DNA of 64,000 nucleotides from Nitrosopumilus sp. (GCA_965214775.1 OZ243974.1:576001-640000); one strand, 5' to 3'. Positions 15,863 to 25,015 are shown, numbered from the stretch's first letter. Translations and numbers: made by a program. The notes: generated from the sequence alone by a model not told the origin.

Positions 15863-16146
15863 GTGTCCTATAATTTGATTCAGGTGTATTTTACGGTTGT
15901 GGGTTGCGGTTCTGTGCAATCTTGGGGATATGGATCTTCTCTGGGAACTAGGAAGTTATCGGTGGGCGATTTCAGCTGGGACACATCGGTAGATCGGACT
16001 GCATCTTGTAAATTAGAACGTAGTCTGCTTTCCCACATGCTTTTTCTCTGGAACAGGGGCCTGCATGACGTAGTGTCTACGTCAAATAATCGATCATAAC
16101 TTTGACACATCGTGCCTATTTTGACACAAAACTGATTGGTTTTCAA

Positions 16147-16228
16147 TAGACTTTATGCGTAATCTACCTGAATGAGGTGAATTTGTTCGTAATAATCCTA
16201 GATCTGAACCGATTACGCATAAAGTCTA
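16147..16228. mobile_element. MITE family C variant
   Basis: TIR TAGACTTTATGCGTAATC/GATTACGCATAAAGTCTA. Confidence 0.8.
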
Positions 16229-16485
16229 ATTATAGATACTACGTTGTTGATCTGGGGCAGGTTTGGAAGCCTCCCGTCAAAATAATCCTTGATTGTGTAA
16301 ATCTGAATCTTTGGATGTTTTGTACCTAGCGGCATCTCGGTCATGCCGCTGGATGCGGCCTCCTTTTTCATTTTGGGTGTTGGCTCCCTCATACATACAA
16401 ATATGCCAAACCTCGCACCTTTGCGCTCCACCATTCCATTGAGGTCACGGACCATTGCAGAACCTATCTGATGTCCTCCCTTCAC
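16213..16485 (-). pseudogene. Fragment of Mrr-like endonuclease domain (methylase-fusion type)
   Basis: VKGG..MVRDLNG..GIFVC..PT..M..EA..PKIQI; lacks its N-terminus and ends in a MITE. Confidence 0.7.
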
Positions 16486-16713
16486 GGGGACTCACTTTCC
16501 CATATTTGGGATAACCCTTGGAATCTGATCCAATATGGATGTATTCCTGCCGTCAGCTAAGTGAAAAGTACCCCAGATCTGACATCATGGTGGGGAGCTT
16601 AGGCTCTGAGATAAACCGCCATGCCCTCCAGAAGTACAGCATGTAAACAGTTAACCGTCCAAACCAGCTCTTTTATCACCACGTTTTTTACCACATGTTG
16701 TGATTGAAAACTA

Positions 16714-17460
16714 ATGGCTGCAGGCAAGGCACTCATCTTTCTTGTGATCATTGTGCTGGTAGGCGCCGGTATCTGGTGGGGTGTCAGTTCATGGTTGGAC
16801 GGGGAAGTCGAACAGGAACGTGTAGAAAAAACACTGTATCCGAACACTCTTGAGATGTTGGATGATGATCTTAGAAAGCTCTCTTGGGAGTCTGGCGAGA
16901 TAGGCATCATAGCGGGGTGGAAGGGTGACATTGAGGCCTGTGTCATGATTGACAGTAAACAGAGTTATAGAGAGATTGTAGGAAAAGCTGATAATTGGCT
17001 GGATAGGGTCGAGGGGTTTGACAGGAGGACGTTAGAGTCTGTACTGGATTTGGAGCATAGGTTTGAGATGCCTGCACATGACTATAACAACCTAAAGGTC
17101 ATGTTTGGTTGGATCAAGGCTTGTATGGATGATAAAACTGCCAAATTTGGCCAGGTTAGAGACGAACAGCCTGTGGAATATTGGAAAGATGGTGAAGAAT
17201 CCGAAGGGGAATTGAATGGCGAGGATTGGATAGAGAAGATGGATGCAAACCTGCAGCTGTGCAAGTCGGCCGGCAATCTGCTGGATTTGCAGTTCCTCCG
17301 TGATGATTTGGATCTGCAGCTGCCTGTAATGTATGCAGAGGCGCCGGGTTTTACCGAGGAGCAGATGGCATCTCTTGAGATGAATGCAGAAGATCTCACC
17401 GCATGTTTCGAAGAAAAGATTACAGAGTATGTGTCAAATACCCCTGATCCATCACCCTGA
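16714..17460 (+). CDS. Membrane-anchored protein with two Cys-pair helical domains
   Basis: N-terminal TM helix; C-terminal domain paralogous to 38925-39257. Confidence 0.8.
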   Translation: MAAGKALIFLVIIVLVGAGIWWGVSSWLDGEVEQERVEKTLYPNTLEMLDDDLRKLSWESGEIGIIAGWKGDIEACVMIDSKQSYREIVGKADNWLDRVEGFDRRTLESVLDLEHRFEMPAHDYNNLKVMFGWIKACMDDKTAKFGQVRDEQPVEYWKDGEESEGELNGEDWIEKMDANLQLCKSAGNLLDLQFLRDDLDLQLPVMYAEAPGFTEEQMASLEMNAEDLTACFEEKITEYVSNTPDPSP

Positions 17461-17529
17461 CTACGGCGGGGGCGTTTTTATCATGTGTTCAGCTGCTGAT
17501 GGAGCGTAAACACTTGCATCCTGTACGGG

Positions 17530-19227
17530 TTATTTCTTGAGACGTTTTTTGATGGCAAATGCCGCTGCCGTGGGGGCCACAATATAAATTCCCAAGTTCA
17601 ACGCAATGACTGAGATACCCAAGCCCATTACCTGCGACTCGGACCCTTCATCAGCTAGTGTCATTATTGTGAGAGTCGACAGCATTGGAGTGATAGTCAG
17701 TTTCACTGCTTCACGAAATGCGGGATTTTCTCTTTCAAGATCAGCTATTGCCGGCGAGAATGAATAGTAAACATGGTTAAATGCGGTCATAAAAGATGCG
17801 CCGGATGCAGTGTTCAATATGGTATTGTCTCTTGTTTCTCTAAGAAGTTGTACCTGTGGTGCTAATTCGGAGCCAAATGCTGCAGTAGCTATTAGACACC
17901 CCCCAGAGCTTTTTGTACTGGTGCTGCTTTGAGGCTGACCGGAAGTGATTGGAGTCTGAGCTTCATCCAGATTGACTGTTACCGTGAATCTTTCTACGCT
18001 TGAACGCCCGGATGAATCCGTTGCAGCGCATGAAACCGTGGTTGTTCCAGGCTCAAAAACCGAACCTGAGGGGGGATTGCAATTTATCTGAACGTTTGAG
18101 TCGGTATCGTCTGTTGCAGTGACTTTGAAACTAACCGGCTTGCCATTGGGGTTTCGGGTTTCAACAGAAATTGGTGACGGGACTGTCAGTTTCGGTGGAA
18201 CGCTGTCGTCTGTGTTGATTACATACAACATGCCGTCTTCATTTCTGACATACAAAGTCTTTGTAACCGAGTTAAAACTCATTCCCCTTGGTTCTGAGGG
18301 GAGTGAAAACTCATCTAGAACCTGCTTTGAATTCGTATCAATGATCTTGACGGATTCTGATTGTTCACTCAAAACATAAAGACGGTTGGTGTCTTCATCA
18401 ATGTCCAGTTCGTAGGCACCTCCGCGAACCTCGATCGCATCGCTTACCTGATTCGTTTTGCCGTCGATTATTGAAATGTAATTGTGGGATCCATGTGAAA
18501 CGTATATGGTATCTGTATTCTCGTTTATGGCCAGATGATAGGCCGGCAGTAGTTTGATTGTGGACTTGGGGGGGATTTCCTTGCCGGTTAGTTGAGAATT
18601 TCCATCTATCACTCCCATAGATCCTGTATAATATGAAATGGTGTACACCTGATTCGTTTTGTCATTAACATCAATATCAGTTGAACCAGTTCCTTTGAGA
18701 ATAGCCTTTAATTCAAAGGTTCTTCCATCCATGAATCCTACCCACGTATCAGAATCATAACTTGCGGGAAAAATTATCAAATTCTTTTGCGAGTTTACCG
18801 CTATCCCACCTGGAAGATAGTCCGCCGTACTTGTGATACTTAGAATATGCTTAGTGCTTGCTTTAAGTAGATTGGTGTTTGGAATTTCTTGAATGATGTT
18901 TGTCGCACCGTCTAACTCGTACAAGGCATGAGGAGCACCATGAAGCAACAGATAGATTTTGTTTGTGTTTGGGTTTATGTCCATTTGGGAAATTTCAAAT
19001 CCCACATTAATTACAGCCTCTAATTTGTTTGAATCGCCATCAATTACTGCAATTTTATGGTCATTAGGGTGACTATAAAGTGAAACATAAATTTTGTTTG
19101 TTTTTTCATTAATGACAATTTCACTAGGTATGCCGCCGTCCAATTCAATCGATTCTTGAGCAAACACGGGAACGGTGAGGAACGGAATTAGGCAGATTAC
19201 GACTAGAATTAGAATCTCAATCCTCAA
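17530..19227 (-). CDS. YVTN/YncE beta-propeller + HYR domain + CFI-box-CTERM surface protein
   Basis: Repeated TNKIYV/IDG..N blades; PP..TVP..TATD..GTTTVSC.ATD; GGCLIATAAFGSELAPQVQLLRE. Confidence 0.9.
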   Translation of the reverse strand: MRIEILILVVICLIPFLTVPVFAQESIELDGGIPSEIVINEKTNKIYVSLYSHPNDHKIAVIDGDSNKLEAVINVGFEISQMDINPNTNKIYLLLHGAPHALYELDGATNIIQEIPNTNLLKASTKHILSITSTADYLPGGIAVNSQKNLIIFPASYDSDTWVGFMDGRTFELKAILKGTGSTDIDVNDKTNQVYTISYYTGSMGVIDGNSQLTGKEIPPKSTIKLLPAYHLAINENTDTIYVSHGSHNYISIIDGKTNQVSDAIEVRGGAYELDIDEDTNRLYVLSEQSESVKIIDTNSKQVLDEFSLPSEPRGMSFNSVTKTLYVRNEDGMLYVINTDDSVPPKLTVPSPISVETRNPNGKPVSFKVTATDDTDSNVQINCNPPSGSVFEPGTTTVSCAATDSSGRSSVERFTVTVNLDEAQTPITSGQPQSSTSTKSSGGCLIATAAFGSELAPQVQLLRETRDNTILNTASGASFMTAFNHVYYSFSPAIADLERENPAFREAVKLTITPMLSTLTIMTLADEGSESQVMGLGISVIALNLGIYIVAPTAAAFAIKKRLKK

Positions 19228-19711
19228 CTAGTACATCAGGGCTGTATGCACTATATGAAAATTGTGTAACTGATCGGACTCTGGAAGTTCAGATATGAAT
19301 TTTGTTACTAATGAATGCCAATCAAATAGAATTTGTGCCTGAAGCCAGAAACGACTTCCAGAACCCGATCAGTTACTTCTGTTCACATCTCGCCTATCTG
19401 CGTTTGGGTTTGTTGATGATGTGTGCACTGCAGCCTATTGATGCTCGCAGGCTTGGCAATTGCATTGACTCCGATATCCTGCGCGGCCTCCGTTCGTCGA
19501 TGCTCCGGTCTGTCGCACACATGATCGACTACGATAAAACCGGTACTTGTTTTTTTTGACATCGGCGGGCCAAACAAACCTGCAAATGCATGTCTAATTA
19601 AACATCCAATTGAGCAAACTTCAGATGTTGTTGCAAAAGCGGCATGTGAGAAATCTGTTGCTGCTGACTGATTTTATTACTTTTTATTGAACATCGACAA
19701 TTTCACTAATC

Positions 19712-20035
19712 ATGAATATGTGGAATGAATTGTATGTTTCTATGGTTTTAAAATATGTGAAAAAACACAAGCCCACTCCCGATGAATTTCAAAAGTATGC
19801 TGATGAGACGTATTATGGTTTTGAATTGGGACGAGAAGATTATGAATCTAAGTACAGAGATAAAGGAATGATAACATCAGGAGAGAATGATGAATTGATA
19901 CTTACGGATTTTGGAAAAACAATTCTGAGCAATGTTCGACTTGAGAAGTTTAAGGATGCAGTTCAGATTTTTGCTCCAATTGTCGCACTACTCATAACTA
20001 CTGCCGCATTAGTCTATTCGATAATATTCATCTAA
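19712..20035 (+). CDS. Hypothetical wHTH-like protein with C-terminal TM helix
   Basis: LILTDFGK motif, hydrophobic tail. Confidence 0.6.
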   Translation: MNMWNELYVSMVLKYVKKHKPTPDEFQKYADETYYGFELGREDYESKYRDKGMITSGENDELILTDFGKTILSNVRLEKFKDAVQIFAPIVALLITTAALVYSIIFI

Positions 20036-20198
20036 GTGAAACGTGCCAAAAAACCAAGTAAAAACAGAAGCTGGGCAAGAAACACGACGCCTCAAATTAT
20101 GCCCACAGGCAAGACAAAAACAGCAATCCACTCACATTTCACTTGGCTGACGTGACCAATGCTTTTTTATTATACTGATTTTCTGATCTTTACTAACA

Positions 20199-20414
20199 AT
20201 GGGAGATCCTAATATCATGGTATACATGTTTGAAGCCGACAGTGCCCAAAAGTTGCAAGAATTGGTTAATGATTTTTTACAGAAGCATTTCATGCAGGCC
20301 AATAGATATGTGATTAATTACAGTCATACCCATACAAATAACCACAAGTTTCATTATTCTTGCATGATCTGTAAAAACTTGGCCCAAAGTGGCAGTGGCG
20401 CAACGTATCCGTAA
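20199..20414 (+). CDS. Small hypothetical protein
   Basis: 71-aa ORF after AT-rich promoter-like sequence. Confidence 0.5.
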   Translation: MGDPNIMVYMFEADSAQKLQELVNDFLQKHFMQANRYVINYSHTHTNNHKFHYSCMICKNLAQSGSGATYP

Positions 20415-20469
20415 ACGGTTTACTGCCAAATCCCAACCCTTTTTACCATATTAAATTTTGGTACAGTCA

Positions 20470-20590
20470 CAGTCTTCCCAGAAGTACCACGGCAAGTTAT
20501 CCCGGGATAGGAACAATTCAAATGAGGGTGCCTGCAGATCCGCTTGCCACCTTCTGCACCACCACGAGTCGGTTACTTCTGGGAAGACTG
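20470..20590. mobile_element. MITE family A copy 2 (121 bp)
   Basis: TIRs plus 5-bp TSD AGTCA. Confidence 0.9.
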
Positions 20591-20816
20591 AGTCATGGCA
20601 ATACCGAAGGGTGAGGGAGCGCAAAAGGTGCAATTCAGTACTTCCTAGGTGTGCTTTTGCAGACCCGCCACGGCATAGCCACTAATTTCGTTTACGCATA
20701 AGGTCTATAGATCAAATCTACGGATCCCTCGCCGATATCGTCTAGAACATCCAGATTGTCACCAAAGCATAGCCTTCCATTATTCGGGGGAGGGACTCGT
20801 GGCTTCGGCGTTCATA

Positions 20817-20993
20817 TCAATCCACCACAATCCTGTTGTTTTTGATTCGGAACGTGATGGACTCTGGTTCACCTAGCATTTCCAGAATGGGTTTCGGTAT
20901 CCTGCATGATGTACTGTTTCTTCCATCAAACGAGAGTTTTACGGAAAACTCGGTTTCATTCTTCTTCCATCGTGTCAATATGTTGTGCACCAT
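20817..20993 (-). CDS. Small AbrB-like regulator divergent from tRNA/transposase
   Basis: MVHNILTRWKKNETEFSVKLSFDGRNSTSCRIPKPILEMLGEPESITFRIKNNRIVVD; absent from the ORF track. Confidence 0.7.
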   Translation of the reverse strand: MVHNILTRWKKNETEFSVKLSFDGRNSTSCRIPKPILEMLGEPESITFRIKNNRIVVD

Positions 20994-21000
20994 GAAGATG

Positions 21001-21060
21001 TATAAAAATCATACGTACGTATAACCGTTAGGTATAAATAAACGTACGTATAATATAGTG
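21001..21060. promoter_or_regulatory. Divergent promoter region with TATA-like boxes and two ACGTACGTATA repeats
   Basis: TATAAATAAA ~30 nt upstream of the tRNA; repeated palindromic ACGTACGT. Confidence 0.55.
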
Positions 21061-21063
21061 CAT

Positions 21064-21149
21064 GGTGGGTTCACTCAGTCGGTTAGAGTGGCAGGCTTAT
21101 GACCTGCAGGGTTTGACAGCCTTCGTGGGTTCGAATCCCACACCCACCG
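21064..21149 (+). tRNA. tRNA with anticodon TAT (Ile-AUA), long variable arm, G73
   Basis: Perfect stems GGTGGGT/ACCCACC, ACTC/GAGT, GCAGG/CCTGC, GTGGG/CCCAC; TTCGAAT T-loop; 17-nt variable region; T-run downstream. Confidence 0.88.
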
Positions 21150-21190
21150 TATCCTTTTTGTTCTATATTAATTTTCGAGGAGGGGTGTGA

Positions 21191-22312
21191 GTGAACGCAA
21201 GATCCCTACGTGCAAGACAGATCATGGAGACTCCCGGACACGCTACACAGATCATCGGTACGAATGATTTCAGGGTCAGATCCCAGTCCGACCCATCCAA
21301 GTTCTATACGGTATCCAGGACGGGCAGCGGGCTGGTCTGCGAGTGTCCGGACCACCGGAACAGAAGGGCAGACTGCAAGCACATCAAGGTCATACTGGAG
21401 TATATGAGAAGGAACGTGTTCGGACACGAGGGATTCAGGATCATGGAACGGAGCAAGCTGAACCTGTGCAAGTTCTGCGACTCGGGCAATATCGTAAAGG
21501 CCGGACTGAAAAGGAACAAAAAGTCCACGGTACAGAGGTTCAAATGTGCAGACTGCAAGAGGAGGTTTACTACAAACTTTGGTTTTGAGAAGAAGCAGTA
21601 TGACAACAGGATTATCACCGGGGCCCTACAGATGTACTATACTGGAATGTCAGTCCGTGATATAGCGGATCATTACGAGATGATGGGAACCGACGTATCG
21701 TTTAGAACCATATACAACTGGGTTGACGAGTACTCCCGGCTCACGTCCAAATACCTCAACGGCATAGTTCCAAGGGTCGGGAACTGGTTCAGGGCAGACG
21801 AGGTATGGATGAAAATCAACGGCATGCAGTGCTATCTTTTTGCCTCAATGGATGATGATACCCGCTACTGGCTGGCCTCCGACCTGGCAACAACCAAGTT
21901 CCAGCACAATGCGGATTCGCTGCTGGACATGACCAAGAAACAGGCCGGAAAGACACCAAGAAACTTCATCACGGACGGCCTGCCAGCCTATGCCAAGTCC
22001 TCAAGGAGGATATTCGGAAAGGGTACGAACCACGTGAAGCACATCCACCTGGCCGGAAAAAGAGACCGCGATAACAACAACAAGATGGAGAGGCTCAACG
22101 GCGAGATCAGGGACCGTGAGAAGGTGTTCAGAGGATTGAAAAAGACGGATACGGCCATACTTGACGGAATGAGGGTCTATTACAACTATACGAAAAAGCA
22201 CGGTGCACTGGACGGCCAGACCCCGGCAGAATCGGCCCTGATAAGCGTGGATGGCACAAACAAGTGGAAGACTATCGTCCAGAATGCCAGTTTAAGCAGT
22301 GCAACGGAATGA
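21191..22312 (+). CDS. IS6-like DDE transposase with SWIM and Zn-ribbon domains
   Basis: CECPD..CKH; CKFC..FKCADC; FRADE, ITDG, NNKMERLNGEIRDR. Confidence 0.9.
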   Translation: MNARSLRARQIMETPGHATQIIGTNDFRVRSQSDPSKFYTVSRTGSGLVCECPDHRNRRADCKHIKVILEYMRRNVFGHEGFRIMERSKLNLCKFCDSGNIVKAGLKRNKKSTVQRFKCADCKRRFTTNFGFEKKQYDNRIITGALQMYYTGMSVRDIADHYEMMGTDVSFRTIYNWVDEYSRLTSKYLNGIVPRVGNWFRADEVWMKINGMQCYLFASMDDDTRYWLASDLATTKFQHNADSLLDMTKKQAGKTPRNFITDGLPAYAKSSRRIFGKGTNHVKHIHLAGKRDRDNNNKMERLNGEIRDREKVFRGLKKTDTAILDGMRVYYNYTKKHGALDGQTPAESALISVDGTNKWKTIVQNASLSSATE

Positions 22313-22360
22313 TTTTTGAGAAGATCCATATCCCCAAGATTGCACAGAACCTGGGTTGCT

Positions 22361-22501
22361 TAGTTTGTTGCATAACTTCCTTTTTCGTCAAAAAACTCCT
22401 GATTTCGATCACAAATAGAGCCGAAATCAACTGTGGTTTTTATCTGGATTTATCATTTAGGGTGAATTCAAGTAAAAAAAATTGAGTTATGCAACAAACT
22501 A
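22361..22501. mobile_element. MITE family E (141 bp)
   Basis: 17-bp TIR TAGTTTGTTGCATAACT; 8-bp TSD GGGTTGCT. Confidence 0.9.
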
Positions 22502-23704: not shown

Positions 23705-25015
23705 ATGCAGGATATAGAAGGCGCATTGAGCAGAGTAATCCGACCAGACAACTCGAAGGAGTTTCTCAAAAAGACGATCAGGGAAAACGCGGACAGCTAT
23801 GGCAGCTGCTATGTCAAGCTTGCCATTGTAAAGCAGGACAGGGTAAACTATCTGTACCTGGCAGACATAAGGATCCAGCACGGAAAAGAACCACAAATAA
23901 AAGAAGCAATTTATGACTATCAGGACGCGGTTCTGGCCACCATACCTGTCAAGCTACACGACCTGCAAGGACTAATCGATGAGCTGGAGTCAGGACAGAT
24001 CGTCGTCGGATCCCTGAAAGACATCAAGGCAAAGGGAGGTTTTGAAAACGATATCCACGTGGTCCCTAGCAGGACAAGATACGCGGGTTTTTACGAGGAA
24101 TGGCCCTCGCGGTGTCTCAGGTACTCATTAGACCAAAAAGTAGCTCTCAATAACGTTGCCAGCCATTTAGTAAGGCTTGGACAGCCCTCCTATCCCAGCC
24201 TGCTTGAGGCATGCCGTGTGTTTTTTGGTCACGAGTACAATCCGGCCCAGTACGGTCCAGTGTGCATCAACTTTATGATTCCTGACTTTAGGGCAAGAAT
24301 AAAAACTTTGGAAATCGGGGGAAGGCAGATATCCGTCATTGCCGAACGGCGCGAACAGCCAATGGAAGGCCTCAGAGTCAAGATTTACAGTGCCGGGGGA
24401 GCAGGCAGATTCCACCATTCTGAAGACCTGAATTTGGACTCCTCGGGGTGCGCAAAGATCCATCTGGCATTTGTCCCTGATCAGGTCTACGCCTGGCTGA
24501 TTGATCTGAAAGGCAACGTGCTGGATTGGAAGGAATTCGGGCATCCATACACCAAAAATGACGGCGTGATAGTAAGGACCACCGTCGAGAGCCTTGAGTC
24601 CATGATTGCGGCCGGGGAGGGCCAAAATGTTGAGTTCAAAAGAGATCTGGACGGCAAGACAGACGAGTTTCTCGAATCGGTGGTCTCTTTTGCAAATACT
24701 GACGGCGGCATCATCCTGCTTGGCATAGATGACAGGGGCAGAACAGTCGGGCATTTTGAAGACATTGAGAAGACTGAAAGGAAAATACGGGGGCTGGTCA
24801 GCGGACGCTGTGAGCCAGACATAAACATCAGCATGGAAGAGGTCGGCATGGAAAATAGTCAGGTGGTGATAGTCAGGATAGGGGAGGGGAAAAACAAGCC
24901 GTATTTGCTAAACGGAAAGTCTGCCTACAAGCGAGTGGGGGAAAGAGACCTTGCCTTCAAGCGGCTTGATTTTGATACTGCCTATAATGAAAAACGCGAT
25001 CCCCCAACTAAGTAA
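23705..25015 (+). CDS. Protein with C-terminal AlbA_2/Schlafen domain
   Basis: GEGQNVEFKR..VVSFANTDGGIILLGIDD. Confidence 0.88.
   Translation: MQDIEGALSRVIRPDNSKEFLKKTIRENADSYGSCYVKLAIVKQDRVNYLYLADIRIQHGKEPQIKEAIYDYQDAVLATIPVKLHDLQGLIDELESGQIVVGSLKDIKAKGGFENDIHVVPSRTRYAGFYEEWPSRCLRYSLDQKVALNNVASHLVRLGQPSYPSLLEACRVFFGHEYNPAQYGPVCINFMIPDFRARIKTLEIGGRQISVIAERREQPMEGLRVKIYSAGGAGRFHHSEDLNLDSSGCAKIHLAFVPDQVYAWLIDLKGNVLDWKEFGHPYTKNDGVIVRTTVESLESMIAAGEGQNVEFKRDLDGKTDEFLESVVSFANTDGGIILLGIDDRGRTVGHFEDIEKTERKIRGLVSGRCEPDINISMEEVGMENSQVVIVRIGEGKNKPYLLNGKSAYKRVGERDLAFKRLDFDTAYNEKRDPPTK

Follow-up and report, generated by a model that had tools for sequence, protein, structure and literature searches.

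The locus described here lies in a 64,000-nucleotide (nt) stretch of the Nitrosopumilus sp. genome (GCA_965214775.1 OZ243974.1:576001-640000). This whole stretch is called the window, and coordinates refer to it unless a genome position is given; the genome itself comprises 2.83 Mb in one contig. At the centre of the locus is an unusual transfer RNA (tRNA) gene with the anticodon UAU, here named tRNA(UAU), together with a small divergent gene for a protein of predicted AbrB/MazE fold and an IS6-family transposase gene. All three lie inside one IS6-type transposon, which runs from 15908 to 22351 (6,444 bp), is bounded by perfect 34-nt inverted repeats and has the sequence TGGGTTGC duplicated on both flanks. 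From left to right the features, including those open reading frames (ORFs) that belong to the cargo, are as follows.

15900-15907: left copy of the target-site duplication, 8 bp, TGGGTTGC; the same eight bases stand at both ends of the element
15908-15941 (+): left terminal inverted repeat, 34 nt, beginning GGTTCTGTGCAA, a perfect match to the reverse complement of 22318-22351
17530-19227 (-): cargo gene for a secreted beta-propeller/HYR-domain protein of 565 residues (Pfam YNCE 28.9 bits and HYR 27.4 bits, both above cut-off)
19712-20035 (+): cargo ORF of 107 residues, matching no Pfam family
20817-20993 (-): ORF of 58 residues, predicted AbrB/MazE fold, divergent from the tRNA; probable repressor
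21011-21022: palindrome 1, ATACGTACGTAT, an inverted repeat and putative operator on the side of the AbrB-like gene
21033-21040 (+): TATA-like box, TATAAATA, centred about 27 nt 5' of tRNA position 1; putative promoter
21042-21051: palindrome 2, ACGTACGTAT, a putative operator between the TATA-like box and the tRNA start
21064-21149 (+): tRNA(UAU), a class II cloverleaf of 86 nt with G37, a variable arm of 5-6 bp and G73; CCA is not encoded
21150-21190 (+): spacer of 41 nt with a T5 run (21155-21159), TATATTAAT (21164-21172) and GAGGAGGGG (21177-21185)
21191-22312 (+): transposase, IS6-family DDE type, 373 residues, GTG start, with a CxCx9CxH motif near the N-terminus
22318-22351 (-): right terminal inverted repeat, 34 nt
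22352-22359: right copy of the target-site duplication, 8 bp, TGGGTTGC

A preliminary description of the locus had already placed the tRNA in a unit with the small gene and the transposase. To this we add that the unit is a 6.4-kb transposon with terminal repeats, that the AbrB-like gene is mainly the partner of the transposase, and that the tRNA is a member of a family.

The cloverleaf reported at 21064-21149, with the anticodon TAT, G37, a 17-nt variable region able to pair and G73, was recovered alike by ARAGORN, by Rfam and from the sequence. The sole ARAGORN call in the window spans 21063-21150 with the anticodon tat, and Rfam RF00005 matched 21064-21149 over the full model (60.3 bits, E 7e-12; gathering score 29). 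The sequence and the ARAGORN drawing give an acceptor stem of 7 bp, a D stem of 4 bp and an anticodon stem of 5 bp. The 7-nt anticodon loop, CUUAUGA, places U34, A35, U36 and G37; the 17-nt variable region, AGGGTTTGACAGCCTTC, pairs A-U, G.U, G-C, G-C and U.G (and U-A); the T arm, GTGGG/TTCGAAT/CCCAC, is standard, and the discriminator is the G at 21149. tRNA(UAU) is a real tRNA gene and not an artefact, and a sequencing error in the anticodon was dismissed because two diverged copies and relatives share UAU. We also considered whether the variable arm could be a non-canonical intron of a class I tRNA, and rejected this: the arm forms a simple hairpin and lacks the pair of 3-nt bulges that a bulge-helix-bulge site has, the geometry of the insert is that of tRNA-Ser in the host lineage, and G37 and G73 would stay odd regardless. 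The surroundings are also as first described, with the TATA-like box TATAAATA upstream at 21033-21040 and the transposase GTG at 21191, 41 nt beyond the tRNA. The spacer would act as terminator, second promoter or leader, and its motif TATATTAAT reappears 3' of family tRNAs in other genomes.

The ends of the element were located from partial copies that reached 22351, where the reverse complement reads GGTTCTGTGCAATC; a genome-wide search with this string returned paired sites. We take this end sequence, and repeats starting GGTTCTG, to resemble the ends of IS26/IS257. The transposase matched DDE_Tnp_IS240 (PF13610) with 51.6 bits, above the cut-off of 27, so the IS6 part of its earlier designation as a SWIM-IS6 transposase stands. 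The SWIM-like part is a CxCx9CxH motif in LVCECPDHRNRRADCKH that was spotted by eye, and Pfam listed no SWIM family at E<=0.01. A whole-genome ARAGORN run found a second tRNA with the anticodon tat at genome position c[134434-134519] (copy B), in an element of 3,332 bp (genome 133208-136539) with its own target duplication, AGTTCTGT. The window locus and copy B can be aligned over 20782-22288 at 84% identity; conservation far exceeds this figure in the small ORF, the intergenic region and the tRNA, where differences are only scattered. All five differences between the two tRNAs fall in the variable loop or are neutral for pairing; among the latter, C13 is changed to U, which gives G.U, and in the arm a G.U pair has become A-U through a G to A change. 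The cargo differs in the segment that separates the left repeat from the small ORF: the window copy carries the 565-residue gene, the 107-residue ORF and short repeat families, and the 565-residue gene, which lies inside the repeats, is absent from copy B. Three more such elements lack the tRNA and each has its own 8-bp duplication (genome 1032248-1038595, 1293463-1295828 and 2289845-2297554), bringing the elements with 8-bp duplications in this genome to five.

One tRNA-less copy (genome 1294308-1294512) retains the leader with its T-run, TATAT-TTAAT and TTTTCGAGG. Ahead of this leader lies sequence with a faint likeness to a T arm and acceptor end in decay, as loss of a tRNA would leave. Four short repeat families flank or lie within the window transposon (20470-20590, 20635-20706, 20028-20150 and 22361-22501), each with dozens of genomic copies at 70-97% identity. 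Two of them resemble miniature transposable elements in having terminal inverted repeats, of 17 nt (perfect) in one and 25 nt (88%) in the other.

Homologues of the small protein were found in 97 of 401 genomes of the class, and a third homologue in this genome (genome 2472314-2472490, 54% identity) is divergent from another 86-nt long-arm tRNA, with G73 and the anticodon CAG. From the 97 matching genomes 29 small-ORF loci were fetched and searched for long-arm tRNAs, with ARAGORN and then with a covariance model. ARAGORN found a long-arm tRNA at the divergent position in 6 of these 29 loci (CAG and GAG twice each, GAA and GAU once), and the covariance model added three loci, one intron-bearing and two decayed. 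The resulting nine-member alignment (A2) has 98.3% of its cells paired. Changes on both sides affect 18 of its 26 pairs, including all five pairs of the variable arm, and compensatory changes occur in all five helices; none of 500 shuffles was as good, and slid controls reached 37-49% paired. These patterns are those of a tRNA family under selection for its fold.

In the AbrB-linked set of 18 loci the anticodons are CAG (five), GAA (four), UAU (three), GAG (three) and GAU (two), and in one locus the loop is broken. Each of the 17 readable anticodons has A35, and none is a serine anticodon. Near-identical tRNA bodies carry either GAA or GAU (L064), and the anticodon is under selection yet independent of the tRNA body. 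Kept across the family are G73, A35, the T loop and the 7-nt anticodon loop. Two members (L016 and L092) have a 14-nt intron at 37/38, which suggests that the intron-bearing members pass through tRNA maturation. The family model (R1), which scores tRNA(UAU) at 91.0 bits, matched in 7 of 151 genomes of the genus (E<=1e-15) and across the class in 3 of 151 genomes, all from a single family (2 of 80 genomes of that family and 0 of 70 from the others). A 161-nt DNA query returned T-arm fragments only in 40 relatives, with no homologue of the tRNA(UAU) locus. Such a sporadic distribution marks the gene as accessory, mobile DNA, and the idea that tRNA(UAU) might be an ordinary conserved host tRNA was abandoned.

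Family tRNAs were also encountered in another setting. A 40-kb island in a related genome (L126 and L127; G464:C2:186000-225999) holds at least eight of them, with the anticodons GAA, GAU and CAG, which share about 45 nt of upstream and about 30 nt of downstream sequence. No AbrB-like gene stands beside these tRNAs and there are no transposases in the island; they punctuate large ORFs, several of which have DNA-methyltransferase-like motifs, as judged by eye.

The position of the tRNA relative to the transposase is clarified by an element in a related genome (G021), which has its own inverted repeats and 8-bp duplication (CATTGTGT) and shares with the window element the small ORF (74% identity) and the promoter with its two palindromes. 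Here the promoter abuts the transposase ATG, and precisely the tRNA and its 41-nt spacer are absent; the tRNA is therefore an insert in an older two-gene element. Transposase homologues are present in 73 of 201 genomes of the family, and 29 of their loci were sampled, one per genome. None of these 29 carried a family tRNA, and nine had the divergent small ORF, which is primarily the partner of the transposase. In the set of 18 loci with both tRNA and small ORF, eight have an IS6-type transposase downstream, and these transposases are 43-100% identical. The transposase starts 40-51 nt 3' of the tRNA in seven loci, and the eighth has a shorter transposase that is matched from residue 93 onward, 93 nt beyond the tRNA. 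UAU, CAG, GAA and GAG all occur in this slot (40-93 nt upstream), so the check proposed at the outset, whether homologous IS6 transposases have an upstream tRNA and whether its anticodon varies, gave a positive answer for some of them. At other tRNA loci the downstream gene encodes an IS1595-type transposase or endonuclease VII, or is a glycosyltransferase-like ORF (identified by eye from the start of the protein). The tRNA is a portable insert that favours the slot just downstream of such promoters. The 401-genome and 201-genome tallies include five genomes flagged as unpublished (G164, G257, G305, G492 and G493), and two negative loci of G164 (L040 and L176) are within the 29-locus counts; the positive claims are independent of the unpublished genomes. 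The G021 element also has a 77-nt class I tRNA-like gene (L015:1756-1832; called CAG, with A73 and encoded CCA) on the far side of the AbrB-like gene, and so tRNA cargo of another kind occurs in such elements.

The amino acid carried by tRNA(UAU) was approached through the tRNA body. Long-arm tRNAs found by R1 or ARAGORN were collected from loci around R1 matches, around the small ORF or around the other odd long-arm tRNAs of this genome; this set covered the own genome and relatives, duplicates were removed, and the discriminator was read by anchoring on the T loop. Two canonical tRNA-Ser(CGA) lacking the T-loop motif fell out, and the set comprised 75 distinct sequences. G73 is present in 16 of 16 canonical tRNA-Ser and A73 in 11 of 11 canonical tRNA-Leu; the non-canonical tRNAs have G73 in 47 of 48 cases and A73 in one. 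When R1 was run on this genome, the four tRNA-Ser (65.8-78.3 bits) scored above the four tRNA-Leu (46.6-59.6 bits). The isotype comparison used two home-made models only, a Ser model from 11 canonical tRNA-Ser (alignment A3) and a Leu model from nine canonical tRNA-Leu (A4), drawn from five relatives. Under the Ser and Leu models respectively, the scores in bits were:

window tRNA(UAU): 64.3 and 50.2
copy B tRNA: 70.2 and 47.7
GAA member L049: 79.1 and 44.0
canonical tRNA-Ser: 97-103 and 55-61
canonical tRNA-Leu: 53-62 and 105-113

The Ser model won for every AbrB-linked member, those with leucine anticodons included, by margins of +3.9 to +35 bits. The details of the structure agree. The variable stem begins right at the end of the anticodon stem and one unpaired C precedes the T stem, as in the Ser alignment A3 and unlike the Leu alignment A4, and the D arm also matches the Ser rather than the Leu alignment. 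tRNA(UAU) has neither the leucine-type arm (a 3-bp stem with unpaired bases on both sides) with A73 nor a serine anticodon (NGA or GCU), carrying UAU instead. Seryl-tRNA synthetase (SerRS) relies on the long arm and G73, according to the available text of a review (PMC7609411). tRNA(UAU) is most likely serylated by SerRS, because it combines a long arm in Ser geometry with G73 and because SerRS does not read anticodons.

Many other long-arm tRNAs with G73 and non-serine anticodons, but with other bodies and away from the AbrB-like gene, occur in five related genomes. They carry UAU (L075, L081), GAU (L071), CCU (L077, L079, L102), UCU (L078, L089, L124), UAA (L084, L090, L091), AUC (L087) and GAA (L106, L110, L119, L120, L122 and L105:1434-1528). 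Those with CCU or UCU would read AGR codons and are one step from the serine anticodon GCU, and some of the other-body tRNAs may belong to class I and have an intron within their variable region. This genome has two odd long-arm tRNAs of its own. One (c[1744619-1744714]) is 95 nt long and has UAG, G73 and an arm that is GC-rich and very long; the other ([1015320-1015418]) is a 96-99-nt form with CAG and a poor acceptor stem, and adjoins a transposase fragment. Among viral contigs, a 26-letter 3'-end pattern matched 29, mostly phage tRNA-Ser(GCU), and none of these 29 carried the AbrB-like gene or this transposase. Four IMG/VR contigs (L142, L144, L147, L158) have bacterial-type serine-like long-arm tRNAs with G73 and the anticodons GAA, CAG, GAU and CAA, a set directed at the same hydrophobic codon families as the archaeal one.

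The host has its own means of decoding AUA. A TiaS gene is present (128.3 bits, in an open frame of 439 residues), and a CAU route to AUA therefore exists. A CAU tRNA at c[379103-379178], which we infer to be tRNA-Ile2, has an acceptor stem like that of tRNA-Ile(GAU) with one base pair different, and both end in A. AUA is common, at 19.5 per 1000 codons in 1,046 long ORFs, so that its efficient decoding as serine would hurt. A73 and A37 are the rule in canonical tRNA-Ile. tRNA(UAU) departs from this type in its long variable arm, G37, G73 and sporadic occurrence among relatives, and is a mobilome gene that stands outside the core decoding set of the host. We looked for AUA read as serine in the linked transposase and rejected the idea, since all seven of its AUA codons align with Ile or Val in two paralogues. 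ARAGORN, with or without intron search, found canonical tRNA-Leu genes for CAA, CAG, UAG and GAG in this genome and none for UAA, for which an intron-bearing gene is possible; in one relative (G183) the sole UAA tRNAs among the fetched long-arm loci have G73.

The small gene is divergent from the tRNA, as first described, and its designation as AbrB-like has some support at the level of fold and none at the level of sequence. AbrB/MazE Pfam models matched none of 26 members of the small-protein family at E<=1, no Pfam family was found on the window protein, and a PDB sequence profile search gave no matches at E<=10. An AlphaFold2 model built from the 26-sequence alignment has a predicted local distance difference test (pLDDT) score of 77 and the order beta-beta-alpha-beta-beta. 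The top Foldseek rows for this model were MazE, with a probability of 0.91 but an E-value of 0.47, and all E-values exceeded 0.4. A second structural aligner gave Z 4.3 for a MazE-DNA entry (root-mean-square deviation (rmsd) 1.6 Å, 43 residues) and 3.7 for SpoVT. An unbiased fold search of 48,161 chains returned 12 with Z>=2, the best being SpoVT (Z 3.9, rmsd 1.5 Å over 40 residues). The 10 best rows of that search comprise SpoVT, MazE, VapB, AbrB, the archaeal plasmid protein C56 and one entry titled 'histone-like protein', all of which we take, from their entries, to share the AbrB fold. The scores are weak, as is expected for a domain of about 45 residues, and an AbrB/MazE fold is likely for the modelled protein. 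No toxin-like ORF lies beside the 58-residue gene, whose neighbours are repeats and the family-less 107-residue ORF, and the gene is therefore not arranged as in a type II toxin-antitoxin system. In the shared promoter region the paired ACGTACGT palindromes (21011-21022 and 21042-21051) bracket the TATA-like box (21033-21040), and palindrome 1 is kept together with the AbrB type in G021, G179 and G231. We infer that the small protein represses both divergent genes through these palindromes.

The reading that we favour, tentatively and as one that falls a little short of probable, is that tRNA(UAU) is a repressor-gated missense tRNA, charged by SerRS and carried on mobile elements, an archaeal counterpart of the allo-tRNAs of bacteria and the nev-tRNAs of nematodes. 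It may deliberately mistranslate the genetic code. The tRNA is IS6-transposon cargo, inserted between a promoter with putative operators and the transposase gene, and would be transcribed from the TATA-like promoter overlapped by the two ACGTACGT palindromes. The divergent AbrB/MazE-fold protein probably binds these palindromes and thereby probably keeps the tRNA level low. The transcript would be matured like any tRNA, and the serine identity set in its body would most likely lead to charging with serine; tRNA(UAU) would then insert serine infrequently at AUA and, by wobble, perhaps at AUG. The sister genes of related genomes, which combine the same body with GAU, GAA, CAG or GAG, would extend this missense decoding to Ile, Phe and Leu codons by switching the anticodon. 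The benefit, at a guess, would be a gated proteotoxic function for the mobile element, such as addiction or abortive infection. A more specific form of this idea, which we think improbable, is a two-part gated-mistranslation module on archaeal transposons, in which a retargetable serine-charged tRNA is the toxin and the AbrB/MazE-fold repressor silences it; loss of the repressor through stress, virus attack or disturbance of the element would then flood translation with hydrophobic-to-serine errors and arrest the cell. Of the options raised in the preliminary description, a missense tRNA inserting serine at AUA is the best supported, as judged from G73 in 47 of 48 non-canonical tRNAs, the Ser arm geometry and the preference for the Ser over the Leu model.

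Several points weigh against missense decoding with serine. Insertion of serine ought to do harm at Ile, Leu and Phe codons, which are abundant, and a set of anticodons that all specify hydrophobic residues and are restricted to A35 would be more easily explained by a hydrophobic attached amino acid, as with the leucine-charged nev-tRNAs. The linked transposase gives no sign of AUA read as serine, one of the two compared paralogues coming from a tRNA-less element. The Ser margin is only about 4 bits for CAG and GAG members, and the Ser-model scores of the family, 59-79 bits, are far under those of canonical tRNA-Ser (97-103 bits); the family is best described as a distinct third class leaning to Ser, and not as plain tRNA-Ser. 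G37 occurs mostly with U36 (one GAU member has A37), and A37 with A36 except in two intron-bearing GAA members; this pattern is the reverse of the canonical rules and may weaken decoding. Some members are decayed (L014, L018 and L101, and a remnant at about genome 2238964-2239060). Finally, the small ORF at 9 of the 29 sampled transposase loci, all without the tRNA, is not a tRNA-specific regulator. The remnant is a 5'-truncated, intron-bearing gene of GAA type with the usual downstream motif, and it abuts a copy of a 121-bp repeat.

Beyond the right end of the transposon the window contains two Schlafen-domain sequences, as had been noted, and a further gene.

23705-25015 (+): SLFN_AlbA_2 gene, domain at 24617-24949, 86.3 bits
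33296-33742 (-): SLFN_AlbA_2 domain, 33.1 bits
25232-26110: metallo-beta-lactamase-fold gene, outside the transposon like both Schlafen genes

These surroundings may represent a defence-type neighbourhood.

Other explanations of the tRNA must be set against the one preferred. We regard it as unlikely, yet keep it as a rival because of the conserved spacing, that the tRNA is a tRNA-shaped cis element of the transposase transcript, from which excision by RNase P and RNase Z, or termination at the T-run, would determine where the mRNA starts and hold it at a low level, with decoding irrelevant. The tRNA-transposase distance is held at 40-51 nt in seven loci although the transposases are as little as 43% identical (range 43-100%), the spacer motif TATATTAAT is conserved, as is TTTTCGAGG in close relatives, and the tRNA occupies the position of a 5' leader, judging from the G021 promoter that abuts the transposase ATG. 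The tRNA-bearing versions also have a GGAGG-like run before the start codon, and the tRNA-less G021 version looks leaderless. This proposal, which had been made at the outset, gains from the spacing but loses from the 29 sampled transposase loci, none of which carries the tRNA, so that neither transposition nor transposase expression needs it. Family tRNAs also precede an IS1595-type transposase, endonuclease VII and a glycosyltransferase-like ORF, and occur in the transposase-free island, and a processing handle needs no invariant A35, 7-nt loop, G73 or intron. The same restriction of the anticodons can be turned towards a benign extra decoder, charged according to its anticodon (with Ile here) or with leucine, which would improve codon supply for mobile-element genes or make conservative swaps; we consider this doubtful, and somewhat improbable. 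Phage tRNA cargo for codon supply is common, all 17 readable AbrB-linked anticodons specify Ile, Phe or Leu, as befits a hydrophobic amino acid, and the T arm is identical to that of the host tRNA-Leu. By E. coli identity rules, though, G37 (not A37) by U36, and G73, are poor for IleRS, the isoleucyl-tRNA synthetase; G73 in 47 of the 48 non-canonical long-arm tRNAs contrasts with A73 in every canonical tRNA-Leu examined; the variable-arm geometry and D arm are of Ser type and the Leu model loses for every AbrB-linked member; and one shared body with switching anticodons argues against synthetases that read the anticodon. For leucine there is a precedent in nev-tRNA-Ile(UAU), which is leucylated and not serylated according to the available text of PMC3333845.

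Much less probable than either of these is a decoy or spare against tRNA-cutting nucleases, whether the nearby Schlafen-domain proteins or PIN/VapC-type toxins, with an odd body that escapes or absorbs cleavage. Cleavage of long-arm tRNAs is known for some mammalian Schlafens, and phages can supply tRNAs in place of host tRNAs that have been cleaved; the end of the transposon is 2.3 kb from one SLFN_AlbA_2 gene and 11 kb from the other, and the family tRNAs of G464 punctuate an island with methyltransferase-like motifs (by eye). The Schlafen genes are nevertheless outside the element, whose 8-bp target duplication means that it landed as a unit, and a replacement tRNA should have cognate identity, which tRNA(UAU) lacks; the earlier suggestion of a decoy against Schlafen-type nucleases thus found no support. 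We give the least weight of all to a drifting relic, that is, a duplicated long-arm tRNA with a mutated anticodon that the transposon carries without present function. The decayed members L014, L018 and L101, the 5'-truncated remnant and the sporadic distribution are what a relic would leave. Compensatory changes in all five helices across genomes, the retention of G73, A35, the T loop and the 7-nt anticodon loop, and the two in-genome copies, whose five differing sites are all in the variable loop or pairing-preserving, speak against it. One further idea, modelled on guide RNAs, that the anticodon or variable loop pairs with the target site, was rejected: CUUAUGA matches neither TGGGTTGC nor AGTTCTGT by eye, and most transposase homologues lack the tRNA.

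Natural tRNAs in which body and anticodon are mismatched are raw material for genetic-code change and deliberate mistranslation. The family described here is a clean study system, having a fixed body, a visibly switching anticodon, mobility between genomes and a dedicated small protein that is predicted to bind DNA. If charging with serine is true, mobile elements can spread codon-specific mistranslation, and the family would offer both a natural test bed for the tolerance of ambiguity by an archaeal proteome and anticodon-independent tRNA scaffolds for archaeal genetic-code engineering. Should the tRNA act on behalf of the transposase transcript instead, IS6 biology would gain a novel type of RNA element.

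In a survey of thaumarchaeal mobile elements, insertion sequences are presented as one- or two-gene units, and the term 'AbrB' does not occur in the available text of that survey (PMC6563490, supplementary tables aside). The available text of the tRNAscan-SE 2.0 paper mentions Thaumarchaeota for introns only. Our literature search, with supplementary tables outside its scope, returned no description of archaeal long-arm tRNAs with non-Leu/Ser anticodons, nor of a tRNA gene as defined cargo of an insertion sequence.

Among known systems, the elements resemble IS6/IS26 in their DDE_Tnp_IS240 transposase, terminal repeats and 8-bp target duplications. Classic IS6 elements are about 0.8 kb long with one gene, whereas those described here measure 2.4-7.7 kb with cargo, and have a divergent AbrB-fold gene and, in some, a tRNA. 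The small protein is like AbrB, MazE, VapB and SpoVT in its predicted beta-beta-alpha-beta-beta order over about 45 residues and in the paired palindromes in its own promoter region. It is unlike them in having no Pfam or PDB profile match and no adjacent toxin gene, its partner being the transposase and/or the tRNA. Genuine tRNA-Ile(UAU) has been reported in a few archaea that lack TiaS, and is of class I; tRNA(UAU) has the same anticodon, but TiaS is present here and the tRNA is of class II with G37 and G73.

In yeasts of the CUG clade, tRNA-Ser(CAG) has G37 beside the anticodon. According to the available text of PMC6041473, that tRNA joins a serine-type body to a leucine anticodon, as in the family here, and reassigns a codon genome-wide in a eukaryote, whereas here the normal host decoders are kept and the tRNA is accessory and mobile. 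The nev-tRNAs of nematodes are class II tRNAs with Ile(UAU) and Gly(CCC) as major types, which are leucylated, not serylated, and weakly expressed, as the available text reports (Hamashima et al. 2012; PMC3333845). The table of a 2014 review gives such tRNAs for nematodes only, with no archaeal or bacterial case listed (PMC4033280, in the part available). In common with the relatives found here, nev-tRNAs are of class II with non-Leu/Ser anticodons, Ile(UAU) as a major type, Arg(CCU/UCU) types and low expected activity. They differ, as far as the available text goes, in deriving from tRNA-Leu, whereas G73 and the arm geometry of the present family point to Ser, and in being chromosomal eukaryotic genes, whereas tRNA(UAU) is transposon cargo.

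The bacterial allo-tRNAs (Mukai et al. 2017; PMC5389517) have serine identity and 35 anticodons, of which UAU is the commonest, and lie near toxin-antitoxin systems or transposon ORFs, according to the available text. They share with the present family a serine-identity long arm, non-serine anticodons, a transposon neighbourhood and some decayed copies. The same text gives an 8/4 or 9/3 arrangement of acceptor and T stem for these bacterial tRNAs, whereas the archaeal tRNA(UAU) is 7/5, with both helices supported by covariation. In contrast to the allo-tRNAs, the position of tRNA(UAU) within a transposon is demonstrated by inverted repeats and a target duplication, and the anticodons of its family are restricted to those with A35.

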